Shown here: positions 8,659 through 62,239 of the stretch, in pieces
Layout: the number at the start of each line of letters is the position of its first letter
Numbering within the stretch: the stretch's first letter is position 1
DNA from: Nitrospira sp. CG24E
Lineage (GTDB): Bacteria; Nitrospirota; Nitrospiria; Nitrospirales; Nitrospiraceae
Length of the DNA: 64,000 bases
Direction of reading: 5' to 3'
Assembly: GCA_002869895.2 (NCBI GenBank)
Contig: NEWP02000009.1
Location: forward strand, 24,601 to 88,600
The notes under the pieces: model-generated
What the model saw: the letters and a program-made list of their open reading frames with translations, nothing else
Database searches by the model: none
What the model was told of the DNA's origin: nothing
Position numbers and translations under genes: made by a program

Positions 8659-8826
8659 CTAGCCATCGCTGGTGAAGGAATGCTCGATGGTGGCTTCCCA
8701 TTGCCGTTCCCAGCGGCGCAACCAGCGGCGACTCTGACGAGTGGATGTGAAGACATCGACGCCCGCCCAGACTTCGGCGGGTGTTCTTCCCCGGAGATGC
8801 TGATGCGGACGAAGGTTGCGGGTCAG
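8659..8826 (-). pseudogene. C-terminal remnant of an rve-type integrase/transposase
   Basis: Reverse-strand translation LTRNLRPHQHLRGRTPAEVWAGVD...* matches the ..RPH..L.G.TP...W end of integrase core domains. No upstream body is present. Confidence 0.5.
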
Positions 8827-8869
8827 GTTGTCGGTTCTTGGTTGCCGGTTGCTGGTAGTGGGTTGTCGG
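8826..8869. repeat. left inverted repeat flanking the four-helix-bundle gene (GGTTG.C phased units)
   Basis: GGTTGCCGGTTGCTGGT pairs with 16/17 positions of AACCAGCAACCGACAACC in 9251-9277. Confidence 0.7.
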
Positions 8870-8878
8870 AGGGACAGG

Positions 8879-9244
8879 ATGGAGAAAAAAGCCGATTACA
8901 CGGAGCTGGTTGTGTGGCAACGGGCGATCGCCCTCGTTCCGGAGGTCTACAAGCTGCTGAAGGCATTTCCAGCGGCGGAAACGTATGCGCTTGCGGATCA
9001 AGTTCGACGGGCCGCCGTGTCGATTCCGGCCAATATCGCCGAGGGACAAGCACGGCAGCATCGGAAGGAATTTCTGCAGCACCTGTCCATTGCAAAGGGC
9101 AGCTTAGCAGAGCTCCATACGCTGCTCATCGTGGCGCAGCAGGTGGGATACATCAATGGCGATCGTCTGCGGGAGATCGAAGCGGTGTTGCAGACTGTCG
9201 GCCGTCCGCTCGCGGGGCTGATCAATCGTCTTCGGCAAGGCTGA
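8879..9244 (+). CDS. four-helix-bundle protein (23S rRNA intervening-sequence protein family, TIGR02436-like)
   Basis: MEKKADYTELVVWQRAIALVPEVYKLLKAFPAAETYALADQVRRAAVSIPANIAEGQARQHRKEFLQHLSIAKGSLAELHTLL is the signature sequence of this family. Confidence 0.85.
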   Translation: MEKKADYTELVVWQRAIALVPEVYKLLKAFPAAETYALADQVRRAAVSIPANIAEGQARQHRKEFLQHLSIAKGSLAELHTLLIVAQQVGYINGDRLREIEAVLQTVGRPLAGLINRLRQG

Positions 9245-9250
9245 CCGTGA

Positions 9251-9277
9251 GCAACCAGCAACCGACAACCGGCAACG
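9251..9277. repeat. right inverted repeat flanking the four-helix-bundle gene
   Basis: GCAACCAGCAACCGACAACCGGCAACG is complementary to the left arm. Confidence 0.7.
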
Positions 9278-11253: not shown

Positions 11254-12685
11254 GAGCAGTAAGGCTGCTAGACGTCGGATGATGCCCATGCCACAAATTC
11301 TCATCTGCCTCATATGTTTAGCCTGGCTCAATATTCACTTAGCTGCCACTGCTGCTGAGCCAGCCATGCCAGAGTCCAATAGTTCAACTGGCATCCGCCT
11401 GATGGAAGAGATGCAAACGGTCATCATCAATTTGGCCGAATCGACCAAGCCCTCGGTGGTGAATCTTATTCCCCTTTCAGAAGCAGGGAAAGGTCGGGAA
11501 TTGTCTCGTGAGCGGACTCCCAACGCTTCAGGATCGGGATCCGGTGTCGTCATCGATCCTGATGGATATATCATCACCAACAACCATGTCATCGGTGACG
11601 CGACGGCAATCGAAGTGCGTTTTTCCGATACGTCTAAGCTGATTGCGCAGGTTATCGGCAAGGATCAGGATACGGACTTAGCCGTCCTCAAGGTGAGCGC
11701 CGACCATCCTCTCCCCAGTGCCAAATTCGGAGACTCGTCGTCCGTACGGGTCGGCCAATGGGTCCTTGCCGTGGGGAATCCCTTCGGACTCGATCGAACG
11801 GTGACCCTCGGCGTCGTCAGCGGAACCGGCCGAGAGAACATCAACCTTTCTCGCTACGAAAACTTCATCCAAACGGACGCATCGATCAATCCCGGCAACT
11901 CGGGAGGCCCGCTTTTCAATCTGCGCGGCGAAATAATCGGCATCAATACCGCCATCATCAACTTCGCCCAAGGGATCGGTTTCGCTATTCCCTCCAACAT
12001 GGTCAAGCAAGTGATGGAGCAACTGCTGACTCAGGGACGGGTGACAAGAGGATGGCTGGGCGTCAGCATTCAACCGCTGACGATCGAGTTGGCCCGTAAG
12101 TTCGGCGTCAACGAAGGCGAAGGGGTACTGGTGAACGAAGTCTTCGAAAAGGATCCGGCTGCGGCAGCCGGCATCAAACCAGGCGATATCCTCACCCGGA
12201 TCGACGGTTCCGTGATCGACACGCCGAATCGCCTCTCGCGCGTCGTGGCAGGATTGCGCCCAGGTATGACGACGAAAGTCGAGATTGTTCGTGATCGGCA
12301 ACGCCTGATCCTTGACGTGGCGTTGATTGAACGTCGAGACCAAGCAGTGGCCACGTCGCTTCCCCAGGCACAAATGGAAACTCCTCGACCACGTACTGAA
12401 ATCAACCTCGGCCTGGATGTGCAAGATCTGACGCCAAGCCTCGCCAATATTTTCAAACTGCAGGAAACTCGGGGTGTACTGATCACCAAAGTGGAACCAG
12501 GCGGCCTCGCCCAATCGGAAGGCCTCCATGAAGGCGATCTGATCAAGGAAGTCAACCGCGTTGCAGTAGGATCGGTTGGAGAATTCAATGTCGCTCTCTC
12601 CGGGGTCCGGCGTGGCGATACCATTCTGCTCCGCGTCCAGAGAGAAGGCCGCGCCTTTTACGTCGTGCTCAAATCGATCGACTAG
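11237..12685 (+). CDS. htrA: periplasmic serine endoprotease, HtrA/DegP/DegQ family, two PDZ domains
   Basis: His (TNNHV), DLAVLKV and GNSGGPLFN catalytic motifs. The start may be the internal Met at about 11279. Confidence 0.9.
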   Translation: MLEDPKSSKAARRRMMPMPQILICLICLAWLNIHLAATAAEPAMPESNSSTGIRLMEEMQTVIINLAESTKPSVVNLIPLSEAGKGRELSRERTPNASGSGSGVVIDPDGYIITNNHVIGDATAIEVRFSDTSKLIAQVIGKDQDTDLAVLKVSADHPLPSAKFGDSSSVRVGQWVLAVGNPFGLDRTVTLGVVSGTGRENINLSRYENFIQTDASINPGNSGGPLFNLRGEIIGINTAIINFAQGIGFAIPSNMVKQVMEQLLTQGRVTRGWLGVSIQPLTIELARKFGVNEGEGVLVNEVFEKDPAAAAGIKPGDILTRIDGSVIDTPNRLSRVVAGLRPGMTTKVEIVRDRQRLILDVALIERRDQAVATSLPQAQMETPRPRTEINLGLDVQDLTPSLANIFKLQETRGVLITKVEPGGLAQSEGLHEGDLIKEVNRVAVGSVGEFNVALSGVRRGDTILLRVQREGRAFYVVLKSID

Positions 12686-12686
12686 C

Positions 12687-12791
12687 CCGGTCTATCTGGT
12701 TTCTTTGGTTCATCTGGCTTGTTTGGTTTATCTGGTTGGCTGGTTAGTTTCGTTCAACCAAATAAACAAACAAACCAAATAGACCAACCAA
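12687..12791. repeat. phased-unit long hairpin repeat (core TTCAACCAAATAAAC)
   Basis: GGTCTATCTGGTTTCTTTGGTTCATCTGG...GTTCAACCAAATAAACAAACAAACCAAATAGACCAACC, between the convergent htrA and EF-G-like genes. Confidence 0.85.
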
Positions 12792-14891
12792 CTAATGCGT
12801 CGCCGCGTGGGCCGGCGCCTTATGTGTTTCAATGATGCGCACCGCAAGCTCGTGCGGCACCTCGTCGTAGCGCGAATGTTCCATTGTATAACTGCCCCGT
12901 CCAGCCGTTAAGGAATTCAGCGCGGTGGCATAGGTAAGCATCTCCGCCATTGGCACAAGAGCCGTGATCTGCTCAGTCTGGCCTTTGGCTTCCACATGGA
13001 GAATGCGCCCTCGGCGCGCATTCAAGTCCCCGATCACCCCTCCGATGTGATCCGCCGGCGCCTCGACTTCTACCGACATGATCGGCTCTAAGAGGATGGC
13101 GTGGGCCGACTCCAATGCCTTCTTAAACCCCATAGACGCGGCGATCTTGAAGGCCATCTCCGATGAATCTACTGCGTGGTATGATCCATCGTAGACCGCA
13201 ACCCGGCAATCGACGATCGGATGCCCGGCCAGACTCCCATGCTGCATGGCGTCGAGCACCCCCTTCTCCACCGCCGGAATGAAGTTGCGTGGAATGGCTC
13301 CGCCGACCACTCTATTCTCAAACTTGAATCCCTCCCCTCGCGACAAGGGCGCAAGCTCCAGCCAGCAATCACCGAACTGACCATGTCCACCGGTTTGCTT
13401 CTTGTATTTTCCCTGTGCCTGTGCTGTAGCACGAACGGTTTCTCGGTACGGAATCTTCGGCGTATGAAGCACGACTTCCGCGCTGTACTTGCGCCGTAAT
13501 TTTTCGAGCGCGAGATCGATGTGCAGTTGGCCCATCCCGCTCAACACCATTTCCTTCGTATCGGCATGTCGAGAAAATTCGAGGGTAGGATCTTCTTCGA
13601 TCAATTTATGCAGCCCAAGACTGACTTTCTCGATATCGGCGCTGGACTTCGGCTCGATCGCAAAGGACAACACAGGCCGTGGAAGCGCCGTCTTCGGATA
13701 GCAGATAGGATCATGTTCGTCGCAGAGCGTGTCGCCGGTTTGCGTTTCTTTGAGTTTGCCAATAGCGACGATATCCCCCGCTCCGACTGAAGGCACAACG
13801 GTATGTTTTTTCCCCAACACTGTATAGAGATGTCCACTCTTCTCCTTGCTGCTCCGGGAACTATTGAAGACTGTCGAGTCTGCGTGAAGCATCCCAGATA
13901 AGACCCGCAGATACGACAAGCGGCCGACAAACGGGTCGATCAGTGTCTTGAAGACGATCCCTGAAAATGGGTCCTCTTGGACGGCACGGCGGCTCACAGC
14001 CTCTCCTCTGCCAGGATGCAGGCCTTTCAGCGGAGCTCTCGTAGCCCGATCCGTCGGTGAGGGCAAGAACTCGACGATGCCATTGAGGAGTGGAACGATT
14101 CCGATATTCTTGATTGCGGAACCGCCGTAGAGTGGGACAACGGTGCCGGCCTGGACCCCAAGGCGAAGCCCGTTGATGACCTCTTCCCGCGTCAACTCCC
14201 CCGAAGCAAGATACTGTTCCAATAATCGATCGTCGCACTCGGCCGCTCCCTCCTGAATACGCTTCCGTGCCTCTTCTACCGAGGTTTTCACATCCGTAGG
14301 TATTGGCAACTGTTGAACGACGGGAGTCTCCTTGCGCGAAGTAACGAGACTCTCTTGAATGAGATCCAGCACCCCTTCGAGTTGGGCACCGCTGCCAAAA
14401 GGCAACGACATCGGCAAGGGCATCATTCCAAGGTCAAGGTGACAGGTCGCTGCTATCCCATCGAAGGAACTGCCGTCTTTATCCATTTCGTTGATGAAGA
14501 GGAGGCATGGCAAGCCGAGCGCGGTGACTCGCGCCCAGACCCTGATGAGTTCGCTTCGTATCCCCGATGAGGCGCCGACGACCAGGACCACCCCATCTAC
14601 CGCGCTCAATGTCATAAACGCCTCTCCGCGCAGGTCCAAAGCCCCGGGTGGATCGACAAGATTGATGGTGCGGTGATTCCAGGAACAACGGAGGAGACTG
14701 GTACTGACGGAACTACGCCGGTGCAGTTCTTCCGGCTCAAAGTCCGAAACGGTCGTGCCTTGCGCGATCGAACCGAGGTGAGGAACAGTGCCGGTGGCAA
14801 AGAGCAGAGCCTCTGCCAACGAAGTTTTTCCGGCGCCGGCGCTGGAGATTATGGCGACATTTCTGAGCGACTCCCTCTGTAGTTCGGTCAT
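12792..14891 (-). CDS. elongation factor G-like GTPase (EF-G paralogue)
   Basis: G1 AGAGKTS, DPPG, NEMD motifs and EF-G domains II-V. Start assigned to MTELQRE (AAGGAGGG SD upstream); the 32 extra N-terminal codons in the ORF track come from the hairpin repeat. Confidence 0.85.
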   Translation of the reverse strand: MTELQRESLRNVAIISSAGAGKTSLAEALLFATGTVPHLGSIAQGTTVSDFEPEELHRRSSVSTSLLRCSWNHRTINLVDPPGALDLRGEAFMTLSAVDGVVLVVGASSGIRSELIRVWARVTALGLPCLLFINEMDKDGSSFDGIAATCHLDLGMMPLPMSLPFGSGAQLEGVLDLIQESLVTSRKETPVVQQLPIPTDVKTSVEEARKRIQEGAAECDDRLLEQYLASGELTREEVINGLRLGVQAGTVVPLYGGSAIKNIGIVPLLNGIVEFLPSPTDRATRAPLKGLHPGRGEAVSRRAVQEDPFSGIVFKTLIDPFVGRLSYLRVLSGMLHADSTVFNSSRSSKEKSGHLYTVLGKKHTVVPSVGAGDIVAIGKLKETQTGDTLCDEHDPICYPKTALPRPVLSFAIEPKSSADIEKVSLGLHKLIEEDPTLEFSRHADTKEMVLSGMGQLHIDLALEKLRRKYSAEVVLHTPKIPYRETVRATAQAQGKYKKQTGGHGQFGDCWLELAPLSRGEGFKFENRVVGGAIPRNFIPAVEKGVLDAMQHGSLAGHPIVDCRVAVYDGSYHAVDSSEMAFKIAASMGFKKALESAHAILLEPIMSVEVEAPADHIGGVIGDLNARRGRILHVEAKGQTEQITALVPMAEMLTYATALNSLTAGRGSYTMEHSRYDEVPHELAVRIIETHKAPAHAATH

Positions 14892-14918
14892 GGGGCCCTC
14901 CTTTAACTGGATGCTGAT

Positions 14919-15015
14919 ATTTGGTTTGTTTGGTTTGTCTCGTTTGTTTGGTTGAAAGCAACTAACCAGATGAACCAAATCAACCAAATAAACAAAACAA
15001 ACCAGATGAACCAGG
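14919..15015. repeat. phased-unit long hairpin repeat
   Basis: TTTGGTTTGTTTGGTTTGTCTCGTTTGTTTGGTTGAAAGC...AACCAAATAAACAAAACAAACCAGATGAACCAGG, between the radC stop and the EF-G-like start. Confidence 0.85.
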
Positions 15016-18650: not shown

Positions 18651-18745
18651 CCGTTATTTAGTTTATTTCGTTTGTTTCGTTTGTTTGGTTGAATGACACT
18701 AGCCAGATAAACTAAATCAACCAAATTAACAAAACAAACTAGGCC
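18651..18745. repeat. phased-unit long hairpin repeat
   Basis: CCGTTATTTAGTTTATTTCGTTTGTTTCGTTTGTTTGGTTGAATGAC...AACCAAATTAACAAAACAAACTAGG. Confidence 0.85.
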
Positions 18746-25939: not shown

Positions 25940-26148
25940 CGGAGTGCGTATCTCGTGAAGCGTGAAGCGTATCGCGCAGGAAGTTTCGAGTTTCGGGTTT
26001 CTAGTTTCAGGCACAGACGGTTTAGGCAACATGAAACCTGGAACTTGCAACCAGAAACCCTAGACGATGAAAGCCAAACGATGAGAATATATTCAGTCGG
26101 CGGCTGCAGGAGTGAGACATCAGAAAAGTAGAATGGCCCCGTTTTCTT
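25928..26148. repeat. about 220-nt repeat ending in GTAGAATGGCCCCGTTTTC, copy 1
   Basis: Collinear with 29228-29448: CGGCTCT.AC..G.GCGTATCTCGTGAAGCGTGAA.CGTATCGCGCAGGA.GTTTCGAGTTTC.GGTTTCTAGTTT....AAAAGTAGAATGGCCCCGTTTTCTT. Confidence 0.85.
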
Positions 26149-26306
26149 TGCCTCGAACACGACGGCTTCAAGCCGGGCGAACGCGCAGGCGAATTCACAT
26201 AGAATATGAGCCAGGCGACGTAAGCCGGCATTCTTGCCTTTTACCCTTCGAGGGTCTATTCAGACTGAAGAAGTTCCGTTGCGGTCGTGCATGGAGAGCA
26301 ATTGCT

Positions 26307-26636
26307 ATGCTGAGTGTAGAGCAGGATCCTTTGTCGTTCGTTGAGCAAAACGCCTGCGAAGTGGCGTGCACTCTTCTGGCATCTGAACCACGGGTCAAGG
26401 TGTTTCTCTTTGGTTCAAGCGCGACCGAGCGTGCCAGCTCCCGATCGGACATCGATCTGGGTATCGATCTCGGTCACGCGATTGCACCGGAGATGCTTGC
26501 GTCATTACGCGATGCGTTCGATGAGTTGCCGATCATGCAGAAAGTCGACATTGTCGATTTTTCCGTACTCGACGAAGCGTTTAAAGCAGGGGCCCTTCAG
26601 CAAATCGAGAGTGTCTATGAGCGACAAGCTGCATAA
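26307..26636 (+). CDS. minimal nucleotidyltransferase (MNT), partner of an HI0074-type HEPN
   Basis: VFLFGSSATERASSRSDIDLGIDL motif; GGAGAG SD; 109 aa. Confidence 0.8.
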   Translation: MLSVEQDPLSFVEQNACEVACTLLASEPRVKVFLFGSSATERASSRSDIDLGIDLGHAIAPEMLASLRDAFDELPIMQKVDIVDFSVLDEAFKAGALQQIESVYERQAA

Positions 26637-27210
26637 TTTGTTAAGGCTTCCAGGTCTTGCGCTGACGCGCCTTGATGGGGCGTTAGCTCAGCCTGTCAAC
26701 GAATTCGTTCGTGATTCTGCCATCCAACGGTTTGAGTTTACCTTTGAATTATTCTGGAAGAGCCTGAAGGCATATGCCGAGGAGTCGGGGGTAGAAGCCT
26801 ATTGACCGAGAGACAGCGTCAGGACGGCATTTCAGCTAACAGGGTGCTGAAAAAGTCCGCCAGCGTCGTTCTCGCATCGTTCAGACCCTCAACGTACCCC
26901 AGAGGGTACGCTTCGGCCCTTCACTCACTGCGGCCTCGCTGGACAGTCTTTTTGAGCACCCTGGAGGTGAATTCTCCTGGTATGCCTCGCGCTCACCGTC
27001 GAAGTTCTTGCGCGTCAAACATAGTTTTCCAGCAGCCTGATCGGGGTGATCCAGGAACACCCCGATTGGCTTCGGATGTTGCAAGATCGCAACCTCACCA
27101 GCCATACCTATAACGAAGCGACGGCTAAATCGATCTACTCCCATCTCCCGGCCTATTGCCGCCTTATCCGCCAGGCGCATGCTGAGTTGTCTCAGAGGGT
27201 CACGCGCTAG
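26617..27210 (+). pseudogene. HI0074-family HEPN (nucleotidyltransferase substrate-binding protein), inactivated by an in-frame TGA (26803-26805) and a 201-bp insertion (26845-27045)
   Basis: N-part ..RDSAIQRFEFTFELFWKSLKAYAEESGVEAY*PRDSVRTAFQLTG; C-part VIQEHPDWLRMLQDRNLTSHTYNEATAKSIY...*. Both are in the same frame and together make a normal-length protein. Confidence 0.8.
26845..27045 (+). mobile_element. MITE-like structured repeat inserted in the HEPN gene; possible GGGTG target duplication
   Basis: Flanked by ACAGGGTG|CTGAAAAAG... and ...GATCGGGGTG|ATCC. Termini GGGTGCTGAAAAAG and CTTTTTGAGCACCC are complementary. Internal hairpin GTACCCcagaGGGTAC. Homologous to 21590-21778. Confidence 0.75.
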
Positions 27211-35364: not shown

Positions 35365-35384
35365 GCCCTAGTTCTAGACCGTTA

Positions 35385-35452
35385 TCGGGTTCATTTGGTG
35401 TGTCTTGTTCAACAAAAAAACTAAACACACTAGATAAATAAAACAAACCGGT
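35385..35452. repeat. phased-unit hairpin repeat (degenerate copy)
   Basis: GGGTTCATTTGGTGTGTCTTGTTCAACAAAAAAACTAAACACACTAGATAAATAAAACAAACCGG, between dnaE and accA. Confidence 0.65.
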
Positions 35453-35455
35453 TAG

Positions 35456-37780: not shown

Positions 37781-37836
37781 CTGGTCTGTTTGGTTGAACC
37801 GGATTGATGAGATATGCCAGACAATCCAGATCAGCC
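37781..37836. repeat. phased-unit hairpin repeat (short copy)
   Basis: CTGGTCTGTTTGGTTGAACCGGATTGATGAGATATGCCAGACAATCCAGATCAG. Confidence 0.6.
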
Positions 37837-37922
37837 CATAGGCATCACGAGACCCTACACTCAGGAAGGGAGCTGGTCAACCAAGCCTTTGGTGGGTTCA
37901 AGAAATTCTGAGCGTTTCTCGA

Positions 37923-38280: not shown

Positions 38281-38390
38281 GCGAGACGGGCGAGACAAGC
38301 GAGACTGGTCTATCTGGTCTGTCCTGTCTATCTAGTCGATCTGGATCTCCACTTGGTCTAGTTCAACCAAATAAACGAGATAGACCACCA
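38281..38390. repeat. phased-unit long hairpin repeat overlapping the galE 3' end
   Basis: GAGACTGGTCTATCTGGTCTGTCCTGTCTATCTAGTCGATCTGG...GTTCAACCAAATAAACGAGATAGACCACC. Confidence 0.85.
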
Positions 38391-39616: not shown

Positions 39617-39967
39617 TTAGGGAGCGGATGATTTATCGTTTCGATAGAATCGGACCTGAACTTTCTCCATAGTAGCCAGCAGGCCTGAGTGAATGTGCTG
39701 CTCGACAAATGAGAGAAAGGTCTCCAGTTTGTCTGTCGTATCCACCAGTTCGATGATCATGGGAAGGTCTTCCGATAGTCGCTCAATCTTGAAGCTGTGT
39801 ATCACGCGAGTAGTGGCGCCAAATCCCATGAGACCGCGGAGAACCGTGGCTCCTGCCAACCCCTGCGTTTTGGCCTGAACCACAATCCATTCGTACAGCG
39901 GCTGTTTTTCATACCGGTCGCTCTCGCCGACGAAGATACGGAGCAATGAACCGTCTGCAGGAAGCAT
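39617..39967 (-). CDS. DUF190 (UPF0166) PII-like protein commonly linked to crcB
   Basis: LLRIFVGESDRYEKQPLYEWIVVQAKTQGLAGATVLRGLMGFG signature. Confidence 0.75.
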   Translation of the reverse strand: MLPADGSLLRIFVGESDRYEKQPLYEWIVVQAKTQGLAGATVLRGLMGFGATTRVIHSFKIERLSEDLPMIIELVDTTDKLETFLSFVEQHIHSGLLATMEKVQVRFYRNDKSSAP

Positions 39968-39970
39968 GAT

Positions 39971-40369
39971 TTATCTCCAGATCGCATAGGCCAATGCATA
40001 GCCGAGCCAGACTGCTCCAAGCCCTAGCAACACTTGTGTGCCGACATTCATCAGCGCGAGTGCGGCTTCCCCATCCCGCATCAAATTCATGGTTTCATTG
40101 CCGAAGGCGGAAAAGGTGGTAAACCCGCCGAGAATACCGACAACCAGAAATGCCCGCGTTTCGGTGCCGAGAAGTGCGCGAGTATCAACCAGTTCTGACA
40201 AGAAACCAATGCAAAAGCAGCCAAGGATATTGACGGCCAGCGTGCCGTAGGGAAACGCGACGCTCTGGCTGAGCGTTTGCACTGTGCCCCCGATTACATA
40301 GCGGAGGACGGAACCAATAAACCCACCGGTCCCAATTAGCAACAGTTTGATTACCATGTGAGCGACCAA
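39971..40369 (-). CDS. crcB: fluoride ion channel CrcB/FluC
   Basis: GGFIGSVLRY, GILGGFTTFSAF motifs; four TM helices. Confidence 0.9.
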   Translation of the reverse strand: MVAHMVIKLLLIGTGGFIGSVLRYVIGGTVQTLSQSVAFPYGTLAVNILGCFCIGFLSELVDTRALLGTETRAFLVVGILGGFTTFSAFGNETMNLMRDGEAALALMNVGTQVLLGLGAVWLGYALAYAIWR

Positions 40370-40448
40370 GCAATCTGGCTACACTATACGAAACATCCAC
40401 TCCTGCAGGAAAGACTGGTTCAGCGATTTTACAAGGCAGAGTTTCGAT

Positions 40449-40545
40449 CCGGTCTATTTGGTTGATCTGGTCTATCTCGTTTATTTGGTTGAACCAGACT
40501 GAATGAAGATTGCGATAGACGAGACAGACTAGATAGACCGGACAG
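40449..40545. repeat. phased-unit long hairpin repeat
   Basis: CCGGTCTATTTGGTTGATCTGGTCTATCTCGTTTATTTGGTTGAACCAGAC...GATAGACGAGACAGACTAGATAGACCGG. Confidence 0.85.
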
Positions 40546-40562
40546 ACATGACCCCGGCCTGT

Positions 40563-46159: not shown

Positions 46160-46362
46160 GGATGGAGTCTGATTGATCTCCCACTGCGCGCGTCCAACGA
46201 AGGCTGGTTCATTTGGTCTATTTCGTCTATCTGGTTTGTCTGGTTGATCTGACTGGAAATTCATCCGGAAGAACCAGACAGACCAGATAGACCAGCCGAC
46301 CAGACAGACAAACCCTGACGCGTTGCGCGAGCACAGGAGATCATCAGACTCCATCCCCCCAC
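46160..46362. repeat. composite: palindromic element (as at 29681-29785) with a phased-unit hairpin (46203-46314) nested in its loop
   Basis: Outer arms GATGGAGTCTGATTGATCTCCCACTGCGCGCGTCCAACG / CGTTGCGCGAGCACAGGAGATCATCAGACTCCATC. Inner GGTTCATTTGGTCTATTTCGTCTATCTGGTTTGTCTGGTT...AACCAGACAGACCAGATAGACCAGCC. Confidence 0.85.
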
Positions 46363-52157: not shown

Positions 52158-52260
52158 CCGGTTTGCCTGGTCTATTCGGTCTATCTGGTTTATCCGGTTA
52201 CGTCCGTTCAACCAAATAAACGCGACAGACAAGACAGACCGAATAGACCAGATAGACCTT
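52158..52260. repeat. phased-unit long hairpin repeat
   Basis: CCGGTTTGCCTGGTCTATTCGGTCTATCTGGTTTATCCGGTTACGTCCGTTCAACCAAATAAACGCGACAGACAAGACAGACCGAATAGACCAGATAGACC, between convergent genes. Confidence 0.85.
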
Positions 52261-62169: not shown

Positions 62170-62239
62170 GGTTGAGGCTAAGGTTGGGAAAAAGAACGGT
62201 CCTGCCAACTTTCTTGCAACGTCAACCTTAGCCTCAACC
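62170..62239. repeat. perfect 17-bp inverted repeat GGTTGAGGCTAAGGTTG / CAACCTTAGCCTCAACC with a 36-nt loop
   Basis: Read directly from the sequence. The arms have a GGTT-phased look related to the hairpin family. Lies between the PLD stop and the monooxygenase start. Confidence 0.8.

Follow-up and report, generated by a model that had tools for sequence, protein, structure and literature searches.

An interspersed palindromic repeat of phased 9-nt units in Nitrospira and its probable selfish character

Why should one stretch of a Nitrospira genome carry, between one gene and the next, so many long hairpin-forming sequences built from the same short motif? We analysed 64,000 nt of Nitrospira sp. 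CG24E (contig NEWP02000009.1, positions 24,601 to 88,600 of the forward strand; hereafter the window), in which a preliminary description had listed nine main sites, numbered here copies 1 to 9 from left to right, as members of one repeat family. The nine sites probably represent a Nitrospira-specific, non-coding palindromic repeat of the selfish type, comparable to MITEs (miniature inverted-repeat transposable elements), cyanobacterial sequences of the short tandemly repeated repetitive (STRR) type and the intervening sequences (IVSs) of 23S rRNA, whose transcripts would be processed by RNase III or would protect 3′ ends.

The family is real. An nhmmer profile hidden Markov model (HMM) trained on 48 copies from other species only, with no window sequence among them, recovered exactly the nine sites (12715-12792, 14918-15003, 18653-18739, 35382-35454, 37781-37837, 38308-38388, 40446-40546, 46201-46312 and 52160-52255) at E-values of 2e-20 to 1e-8, and returned no further locus in the window and no match in five shuffled windows. 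The core TTCAACCAAATAAAC occurs 10 times in the window at two or fewer mismatches against 0.08 expected. When YYGGTYTRT units are sought in phased triplets, each strand yields 8 loci and shuffles yield 0-1. This is a genuine, highly non-random interspersed hairpin repeat. Identical copies are present in two independent metagenome assemblies (L001 and L002, in our labelling of fetched loci) and are therefore not an assembly artefact. Two further sites that had been counted as looser variants, at 8826-8869/9251-9277 and at 62170-62239, are missed by the family HMM and belong to other families. At one copy per 7 kb in the window, the hundreds of copies per genome proposed at the outset are plausible. 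Rfam 15 contains no match at gathering thresholds, and at E<=1 gives merely two unrelated weak matches elsewhere in the window; our literature search found no description of this repeat, its sequence strings appearing in one unrelated plant microsatellite paper only, and plasmid and phage collections held no match to copy 7. The initial exclusion of CRISPR also stands, since the units are 9 nt long, contiguous and arranged in inverted arrays, whereas CRISPR arrays consist of 24-48-nt direct repeats with unique spacers.

The arms are built on a 9-nt period, not the 7-8 nt first proposed: Tandem Repeats Finder assigns a period of 9 or 18 to arrays in all main copies but two, the degenerate copies at 35385 and 37781, and successive GGT motifs along the arms are spaced by 9 nt in 169 cases, 18 nt in 60 and 27 nt in 10. 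The unit consensus is [C/T]TGGT[T/C]N[A/G]T (YTGGTYNRT), and on either strand a GT-rich array comes first and an AC-rich array second. An element thus opens with a 5′ phased 9-nt array, passes through an asymmetric conserved apex (GTTTRTTTGGTTGAA|CCAGACWAACCAGAT) and closes with complementary units in a 3′ array, with the core-oriented layout 5′-(units)n-GTCTC-GTTTRTTTGGTTGAA-CCAGACWAACCAGATGAACCAGAT...-3′ recurring across many species. The centre of the palindrome is the G of TTGAA, and the conserved centre named in the preliminary description is simply the innermost unit TTGGTTGAA plus its neighbour at that position. Across 54 elements the length ranges from 56 to 156 nt (median 94), and the GC content is 41% compared to 55% for the window. 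Some copies additionally carry flank modules that are shared across species, here called A (CAGGATGCTGAAAAAGTCCGCCAGC), B (GCGCGTGAAGCGCGAG) and C (CGTCCCGCCAGTCTCGCG); module A mostly terminates in CTAG, a partial module-A linker is found in window copy 3, and module C adjoins window copy 6 as well as copies in other species.

One protein encoded in the window is identical to a protein that NCBI lists under Nitrospira sp. CG24E, and copies extend well beyond the window, across Nitrospira genomes. Scanning GTDB for the exact core, with one genome per species, yielded at least 118 stretches containing it. Among the matches listed, 39 of 118 come from Nitrospira, Nitrospiraceae or Nitrospirota metagenome-assembled genomes (MAGs), and 9-nt arms surround the core in 39 of 39 of these Nitrospira-type matches compared to 0 of 79 from other taxa, which include a few cyanobacterial core matches without arms. 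A phased scan agrees: it counts 57 elements in 263 kb of loci from Nitrospira and, in 587 kb of other loci, only 3 stray arms. These counts show that the repeat is restricted to Nitrospira.

Within genomes the repeat occupies spacers of every kind. The statement that all copies are intergenic is nearly right, but one arm of copy 6 (38363-38390) codes the end of an epimerase gene with its TGA, and copies 1 and 3 supply TAG stops: the HtrA-like and EF-G genes are both TAG-terminated at the edges of copy 1, and where the site is empty the orthologues have TGA or TAA stops instead. Open reading frames (ORFs) that overlap the window copies are all spurious. Three window copies fill convergent spacers, and most others lie between co-directional genes directly past a stop codon. 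Of 49 classifiable elements, 13 lie in convergent, 24 in tandem and 12 in divergent contexts, in crude classes for which the longest ORF stands proxy for the real gene; this spread gives no sign that promoter regions are avoided. No U-tract accompanies the hairpins, with 0 of 6 copies between 35000 and 53000 terminator-like and a T-rich tail in only 6 of 54 elements, and together with the low GC content this bears out the earlier judgement that they are not plain intrinsic terminators.

Orthologous sites bear on the nature of the repeat. Using orthologues of the EF-G paralogue (73-84% identity) and their flanks, we compared three spacers across 10-18 related loci, and at all three the copies proved to be polymorphic for presence and absence in sister genomes, as the preliminary description had proposed to check. 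Between RadC and EF-G, the window, L121 and L126 have the 9-mer hairpin; L124, L125 and L130 have another element, with inverted module-A copies as its ends; L133 has modules C, B and A; and nine other loci have nothing but a short hairpin, CCGGAAGA..TCTTCCGG. The edges of this spacer (upstream GTAAnCAGGCC, downstream AGGAGGG-ATG) are constant everywhere. The convergent spacer between EF-G and the HtrA-like gene is empty and approximately 10 nt long in L125, L127 and L128, is filled by GC-rich modules in other lineages, and has been filled independently in the window and L130 by 9-mer hairpins, at slightly different junctions. In the spacer between an aminotransferase gene and a Zn-ribbon gene, the window copy is opposite in orientation to those of L121 and L126, and L128 and L125 are empty.

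One allele of this last spacer records a transposition-like event. In L124 a 9-mer hairpin lies within an insertion of 232 nt, which is bounded by imperfect inverted module-A ends with CTAG on both sides; the empty L128 site has a single CTAG, and past the insertion the ancestral spacer resumes intact. CTAG likewise stands on both sides of composite insertions in L111 and L081, and 26% of the left and 19% of the right element ends have it within approximately 50 nt, compared to about 5% expected. The IS630 and IS5 families of insertion sequences (ISs) typically use targets of the CTAG/TA type. The window itself contains a module-A miniature element of about 125 nt (26835-26965, + strand) with the inverted ends CAGGGTGCTGAAAAAGTCCGCCAGC ... 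GCTGGACAGTCTTTTTGAGCACCCTG, which splits an HI0074-type nucleotidyltransferase substrate-binding gene (26341-27210) such that Pfam NTase_sub_bind positions 9-58 precede the element and positions 77-125 follow it; a Pol-beta-type nucleotidyltransferase gene (26112-26636) precedes the split gene. We also considered two other roles for these motifs. CTAG at the end of copy 1 was rejected as a target-site duplication because it is absent from empty sites, and it belongs instead to the element; module A was rejected by inspection as a sigma-54 promoter, its GG-GC spacing being wrong.

Folding and pairing data separate the capacity to form a hairpin from selection for one. Each copy had been described as able to fold into a long imperfect hairpin, and when single strands were scored against shuffles six copies did so strongly (z -4.8 to -9.3). 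Folding was weaker at 18651, 35385, 37781 and 38281 (z -1.5 to -2.9), the weaker folders being three degenerate or truncated copies plus copy 6 folded together with its flank module. The compensatory pairing expected between arms fails, because the arms of one element fit each other no better than they fit arms of other elements. The own 3′ arm ranks on average 25.3 of 52 as partner of the 5′ arm (25.5 expected), duplex energies are -27.0 kcal/mol for own arms and -27.0 kcal/mol for cross pairs, local-alignment scores are 16.0 and 15.9, and Watson-Crick cells in fixed register make up 50.4% and 48.3%. RNAalifold returned no consensus structure on 56 anchored copies, and explicit pair counts were used instead. 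Hairpin potential therefore comes from the family consensus, two inverted arrays of one unit, and not from co-evolution of the arms, and we find no sign of selection on pairing. The inner 16 pairs are strongly strand-asymmetric, G.T accounting for 18.3% of cells and A.C for 2.8%, and because of this excess the strand that reads GTTTRTTTGGTTGAA usually folds better.

Together, these data favour a selfish-type hairpin that is gained, lost and swapped in intergenic spacers. At least some copies probably travel as cargo of miniature transposons that have inverted module-A ends and insert at CTAG, and mobilisation would then be supplied in trans by a transposase. Transcription in either direction would produce an imperfect stem of 30-50 bp, and by analogy with the IVS of Coxiella this transcribed stem is likely to act as an RNase III substrate or as a structure that protects 3′ ends; hairpins of the Correia MITE family are RNase III substrates. 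Four observations weigh against a selfish origin. Hairpin-only copies lack a clean target-site duplication, and at their sites a segment of the ancestral spacer is replaced and not just interrupted. A transposase gene with module-A ends, as an autonomous partner would have, was not found in the fetched loci, where module A occurs 35 times as scattered single ends with no obvious IS-sized inverted pair. The G.T/A.C asymmetry is unexplained by the model and may point to a function, or to mobilisation, in the form of one specific single strand. Finally, the RadC/EF-G spacer always contains some hairpin just upstream of the EF-G ribosome-binding site, which could be a structure required by the host.

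That last observation leads to a different explanation, in which the repeat is a host-selected cis-acting RNA structure that ends, processes or stabilises transcripts or tunes downstream translation, and in which its spread reflects recruitment and not selfish mobility. Several copies abut stop codons, three convergent spacers are filled completely, folding z-scores reach -9, and between RadC and EF-G a hairpin precedes the conserved AGGAGGG-ATG in every lineage, with hairpin types apparently swapped. We nevertheless regard this explanation as unlikely. The elements have no U-tract and no preference for gene 3′ ends, given the 12 divergent contexts among 49, and in tandem contexts the better-folding strand splits about evenly and bears no relation to the direction of the flanking genes. 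The absence of element-specific compensation and the many orthologous spacers that are empty in close relatives further argue against it and for the selfish-type repeat.

A second alternative arises from a gene family that is bracketed by arrays of the same kind. The window encodes at 8879-9244 a 121-aa Avd-like protein of the 23S rRNA intervening-sequence family PF05635 (E 7.9e-36), and its gene lies between inverted 7-nt arrays, (GGTTGYC)n at 8826-8869 and (GCAACC)n at 9251-9277; this unit (8826-9277, + strand) is of a different family and falls outside the 9-mer HMM, and its flank inverted-repeat score is 17 compared to a control median of 7. A distinct Nitrospira PF05635 subfamily is common (more than 120 clusters at 75-90% identity) and occupies a locus of conserved order: an HTH regulator, a leader CTGTAAGTGAGAGGGCGGAGCTGT, a 9-mer hairpin, the PF05635 gene, an AC-rich 9-mer array that starts inside the 3′ end of this gene, and a NusG paralogue, followed by sugar-modifying, epimerase/polysaccharide or ABC-transporter genes (ABC transporter in L214). 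Members of this locus are L207-L214, L058 (7100-7780) and L062 (600-1380), and L207 is from the complete N. moscoviensis genome (CP011801, 3312305-3314085). The HMM of the dispersed copies matches the PF05635 arrays in L214 (7.5e-12), L211 (3e-8), L208 (1e-4) and N. moscoviensis L207 (3e-4), and has no match to the heptamer arrays of PF05635 genes outside Nitrospira. The dispersed 9-mer units thus also bracket a genus-conserved PF05635 gene, and the dispersed family would be the ORF-less counterpart of these arrays. The leader CTGTAAGTGAGAGGGCGGAGCTGT, which by eye we take to resemble the ops/JUMPstart element GGCGGTAG, may be an RfaH-like antitermination leader.

Arrays of other sequence flank PF05635 genes elsewhere. 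In Lysobacterales, Rhodanobacteraceae, Muribaculaceae and viral contigs these genes lie between inverted short-unit arrays, GT-rich upstream and AC-rich downstream. The flank inverted-repeat score has a median of 17 for 17 PF05635 genes and 7 for 312 control ORFs, and 14 of 17 genes exceed the control 95th percentile, although 5 of the 17 represent one orthologous Nitrospira locus and are not independent. In two MAGs from Lysobacterales/Rhodanobacteraceae (L204 601-1023, L206 601-972) the gene and its heptamer arrays sit between ABC-transporter substrate-binding and ATPase genes, which looks like an insertion into the transporter operon. Among IMG/VR contigs, downstream flanks (L215, L217 and L219) and upstream flanks (L215 and L219) look akin by eye in their DNA, and this likeness may reflect repeated insertion at one site or gene. 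Contigs with these PF05635 genes are mostly 0.6-2 kb long, which suggests that the flanking arrays break metagenome assemblies.

On this second alternative the 9-nt unit would be a DNA or single-stranded-RNA site for a multimeric protein, with the pentameric Avd-like PF05635 protein as the candidate, and hairpin potential would be a by-product. The strict 9-nt register with its near-invariant TGGT and variable positions between, conservation that acts per unit and not per pair, and the placement of arrays around PF05635 genes, of the 9-mer type in Nitrospira and of other unit sequences elsewhere, are all what such arrays would be expected to show. However, the protein binding in this proposal is hypothetical, a 9-nt period fits neither the B-DNA nor the A-RNA helical repeat, an arm may have anything from about 2 to more than 14 units, conservation extends to the apex and the flank modules, and the corresponding ORF of the Coxiella IVS is thought to be unexpressed (PMC4990558). 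We therefore consider protein-binding arrays improbable as the explanation of the nine sites.

A broader version of this link can be put forward only tentatively. PF05635 genes and short-tandem-unit hairpins may form one widespread element class in which the protein, a pentameric four-helix bundle, would recognise the phased units on both sides of the gene that encodes it, and ORF-less hairpins such as the Nitrospira 9-mers, and perhaps STRR and ORF-less rRNA IVSs, would be miniature derivatives or extra binding or processing sites. If true, this would provide the first testable function for PF05635 proteins outside diversity-generating retroelements.

A third origin, as elements of the repetitive extragenic palindromic (REP) or bacterial interspersed mosaic element (BIME) type moved by a REP-associated tyrosine transposase (RAYT; a Y1 HUH enzyme that acts on single-stranded DNA hairpins), would fit interspersed extragenic imperfect palindromes that form mosaics with other modules and fold better on one strand through G.T pairs as REPs do, but it is very improbable given that the median element, at 94 nt, greatly exceeds the 20-40 nt of REPs, that no more than 4-5 of 54 elements have a GTAG or CGTC head close to an end, that orientations are 5 copies + and 4 copies - in a single-replichore-like window, and that no RAYT gene was seen in the window or the fetched loci in a search that was not exhaustive.

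How does the selfish-type repeat compare with described elements? The preliminary description had taken its internal periodicity to be unlike that of the known enterobacterial REP/BIME or ERIC elements; short-tandem-unit hairpins have precedents in cyanobacterial STRR (PMC2670836) and in the stems of 23S IVSs (PMC4990558). Like the Nitrospira repeat, STRR are intergenic, taxon-restricted arrays of short tandem units that are capable of forming hairpins and have no known function (PMC2670836); they differ in having 7-nt units and in occurring in heterocystous cyanobacteria, they share no sequence similarity with the Nitrospira repeat, and the latter combines 9-nt units with an asymmetric apex and flank modules. 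The IVS of Coxiella 23S rRNA is a stem-loop with the S23p (PF05635) ORF in its loop, and variable-number tandem heptamers lie directly upstream of this ORF, with the 5′ cut by RNase III at the first of them (PMC4990558). In Nitrospira, arrays of 9-mer units bracket a PF05635 gene, and a stem of inverted short-unit arrays enclosing a PF05635 ORF is found both at window 8826-9277 and at the 9-mer locus of L207-L214. Unlike an IVS, the nine window copies enclose no ORF (loops of 5-25 nt) and are not in rRNA, and in Nitrospira the PF05635 gene occupies a conserved place on the chromosome, adjoining a NusG paralogue. MITEs such as Correia/NEMIS, ERIC and RUP are small (less than some 300-500 bp), non-coding and intergenic, with long inverted arms, insertion polymorphism and modular variants that share ends. 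The Nitrospira elements resemble them in their 56-156 nt of inverted arrays with spurious ORFs only, in their presence/absence polymorphism at orthologous sites, and in the one copy that lies inside an insertion with inverted ends and duplicated CTAG/TA; they differ in arms that are periodic 9-nt tandem arrays of variable unit number and in the lack of a clear target duplication at most copies, and no parent IS was found in the fetched loci. STRR are also said, to judge by the title of a 1997 report by Vioque, to occur inside an RNase P RNA gene. With REP/BIME elements the repeat shares extragenic imperfect palindromes, often past stop codons, and mosaics with other motifs; it is much longer and internally periodic, and has neither the GTAG/CGTC head nor a known RAYT partner. 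The kind of element is thus already known, and what is new is the 9-nt unit, the asymmetric apex, the modular flanks, the host phylum and the use of the same units to bracket PF05635 genes.

The nine copies differ in how they are placed and preserved. Copy 1 (12687-12791, - strand; E 3.5e-17, fold z -4.8) has the left end CTAGCCCGGTCT and constitutes the entire spacer between the convergent genes for the HtrA-like protease (stop 12683-12685) and the EF-G paralogue (stop 12792-12794). Copy 2 (14919-15015, + strand; E 2e-20, z -8.0) has core-like units on both arms; on one side of it is the RadC stop, on the other the Shine-Dalgarno sequence and start of EF-G, and both genes are on the - strand. 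Copy 3 (18651-18745, + strand; E 3e-19) lies between the aminotransferase stop and the start of the Zn-ribbon gene, and its partial module-A linker (TTAGCAGAAGAGAACCGTT) overlaps the TAG stop. Copy 4 (35382-35454, - strand; E 2.7e-10, z -2.4), between dnaE and accA, is short and degenerate with CTAG/TTAG motifs at both ends, and copy 5 (37781-37837, + strand; E 1.2e-8, z -1.5), near the 5′ end of an HI0933-like gene, is a truncated remnant of the apex plus about two units. Copy 6 (38281-38390, - strand; E 1.8e-14) carries module C (GCGAGACGGGCGAGACAAGCGAGAC) at 38281-38305, and its right arm with the TTGGTTGAA core provides the final codons and TGA of the epimerase gene. Copy 7 (40446-40546, + strand; E 1.2e-18, z -9.3) is positioned 18 nt past the stop of a DUF3422 gene and about 80 nt upstream of crcB, both on the - strand. 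Copy 8 (46201-46314, + strand; E 5.5e-15, z -7.7), upstream of a GT87 glycosyltransferase gene, has a 21-bp perfect inner stem without the canonical core, and copy 9 (52158-52260, - strand; E 1.3e-18, z -7.0) takes up the entire spacer that separates a helicase gene from a convergent BACON-domain gene. Downstream of copy 7 is a DUF190-crcB pair (39617-40546), and a fluoride riboswitch upstream of crcB was not detected even at Rfam E<=1.

Other tandem-unit arrays occur beside the family. The element at 62170-62239, with no strand assigned, is a separate hairpin of AAGGTTGAGGCT-like 6/12-nt units (z -6.7) outside the 9-mer HMM, and in L123 a hairpin of the same AAGGTTGAGGCT type also occupies the EF-G/HtrA spacer, downstream of the orthologue of EF-G. 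There are thus several families of tandem-unit hairpins in Nitrospira. A heptamer TCAGCCT / CTTCAGC array lies at 399-425 of the window (3.9 copies), and arrays of this type adjoin 9-mer hairpins in L119 (~1555-1620 and ~2820-2880) and, downstream of EF-G, in L121 and L124. CAGAACT heptamer arrays are found in L028 and L120.

Nitrospira are the main nitrite oxidisers, and include the complete ammonia oxidisers (comammox), of soils, waters and treatment plants, and their genomes are available mostly as MAGs. In these genomes a repeat present about once per 7 kb, with a GC content of 41% against a background of 55%, breaks assemblies and creates false ORFs, and it rewrites gene ends through the stop codons and C-terminal codons that it supplies, such that annotators need a model of it. 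It is also a ready marker for strain typing and for lineages. The link to PF05635 provides a handle on two puzzles, the nature of rRNA intervening sequences and the role of Avd-like proteins outside retroelements.

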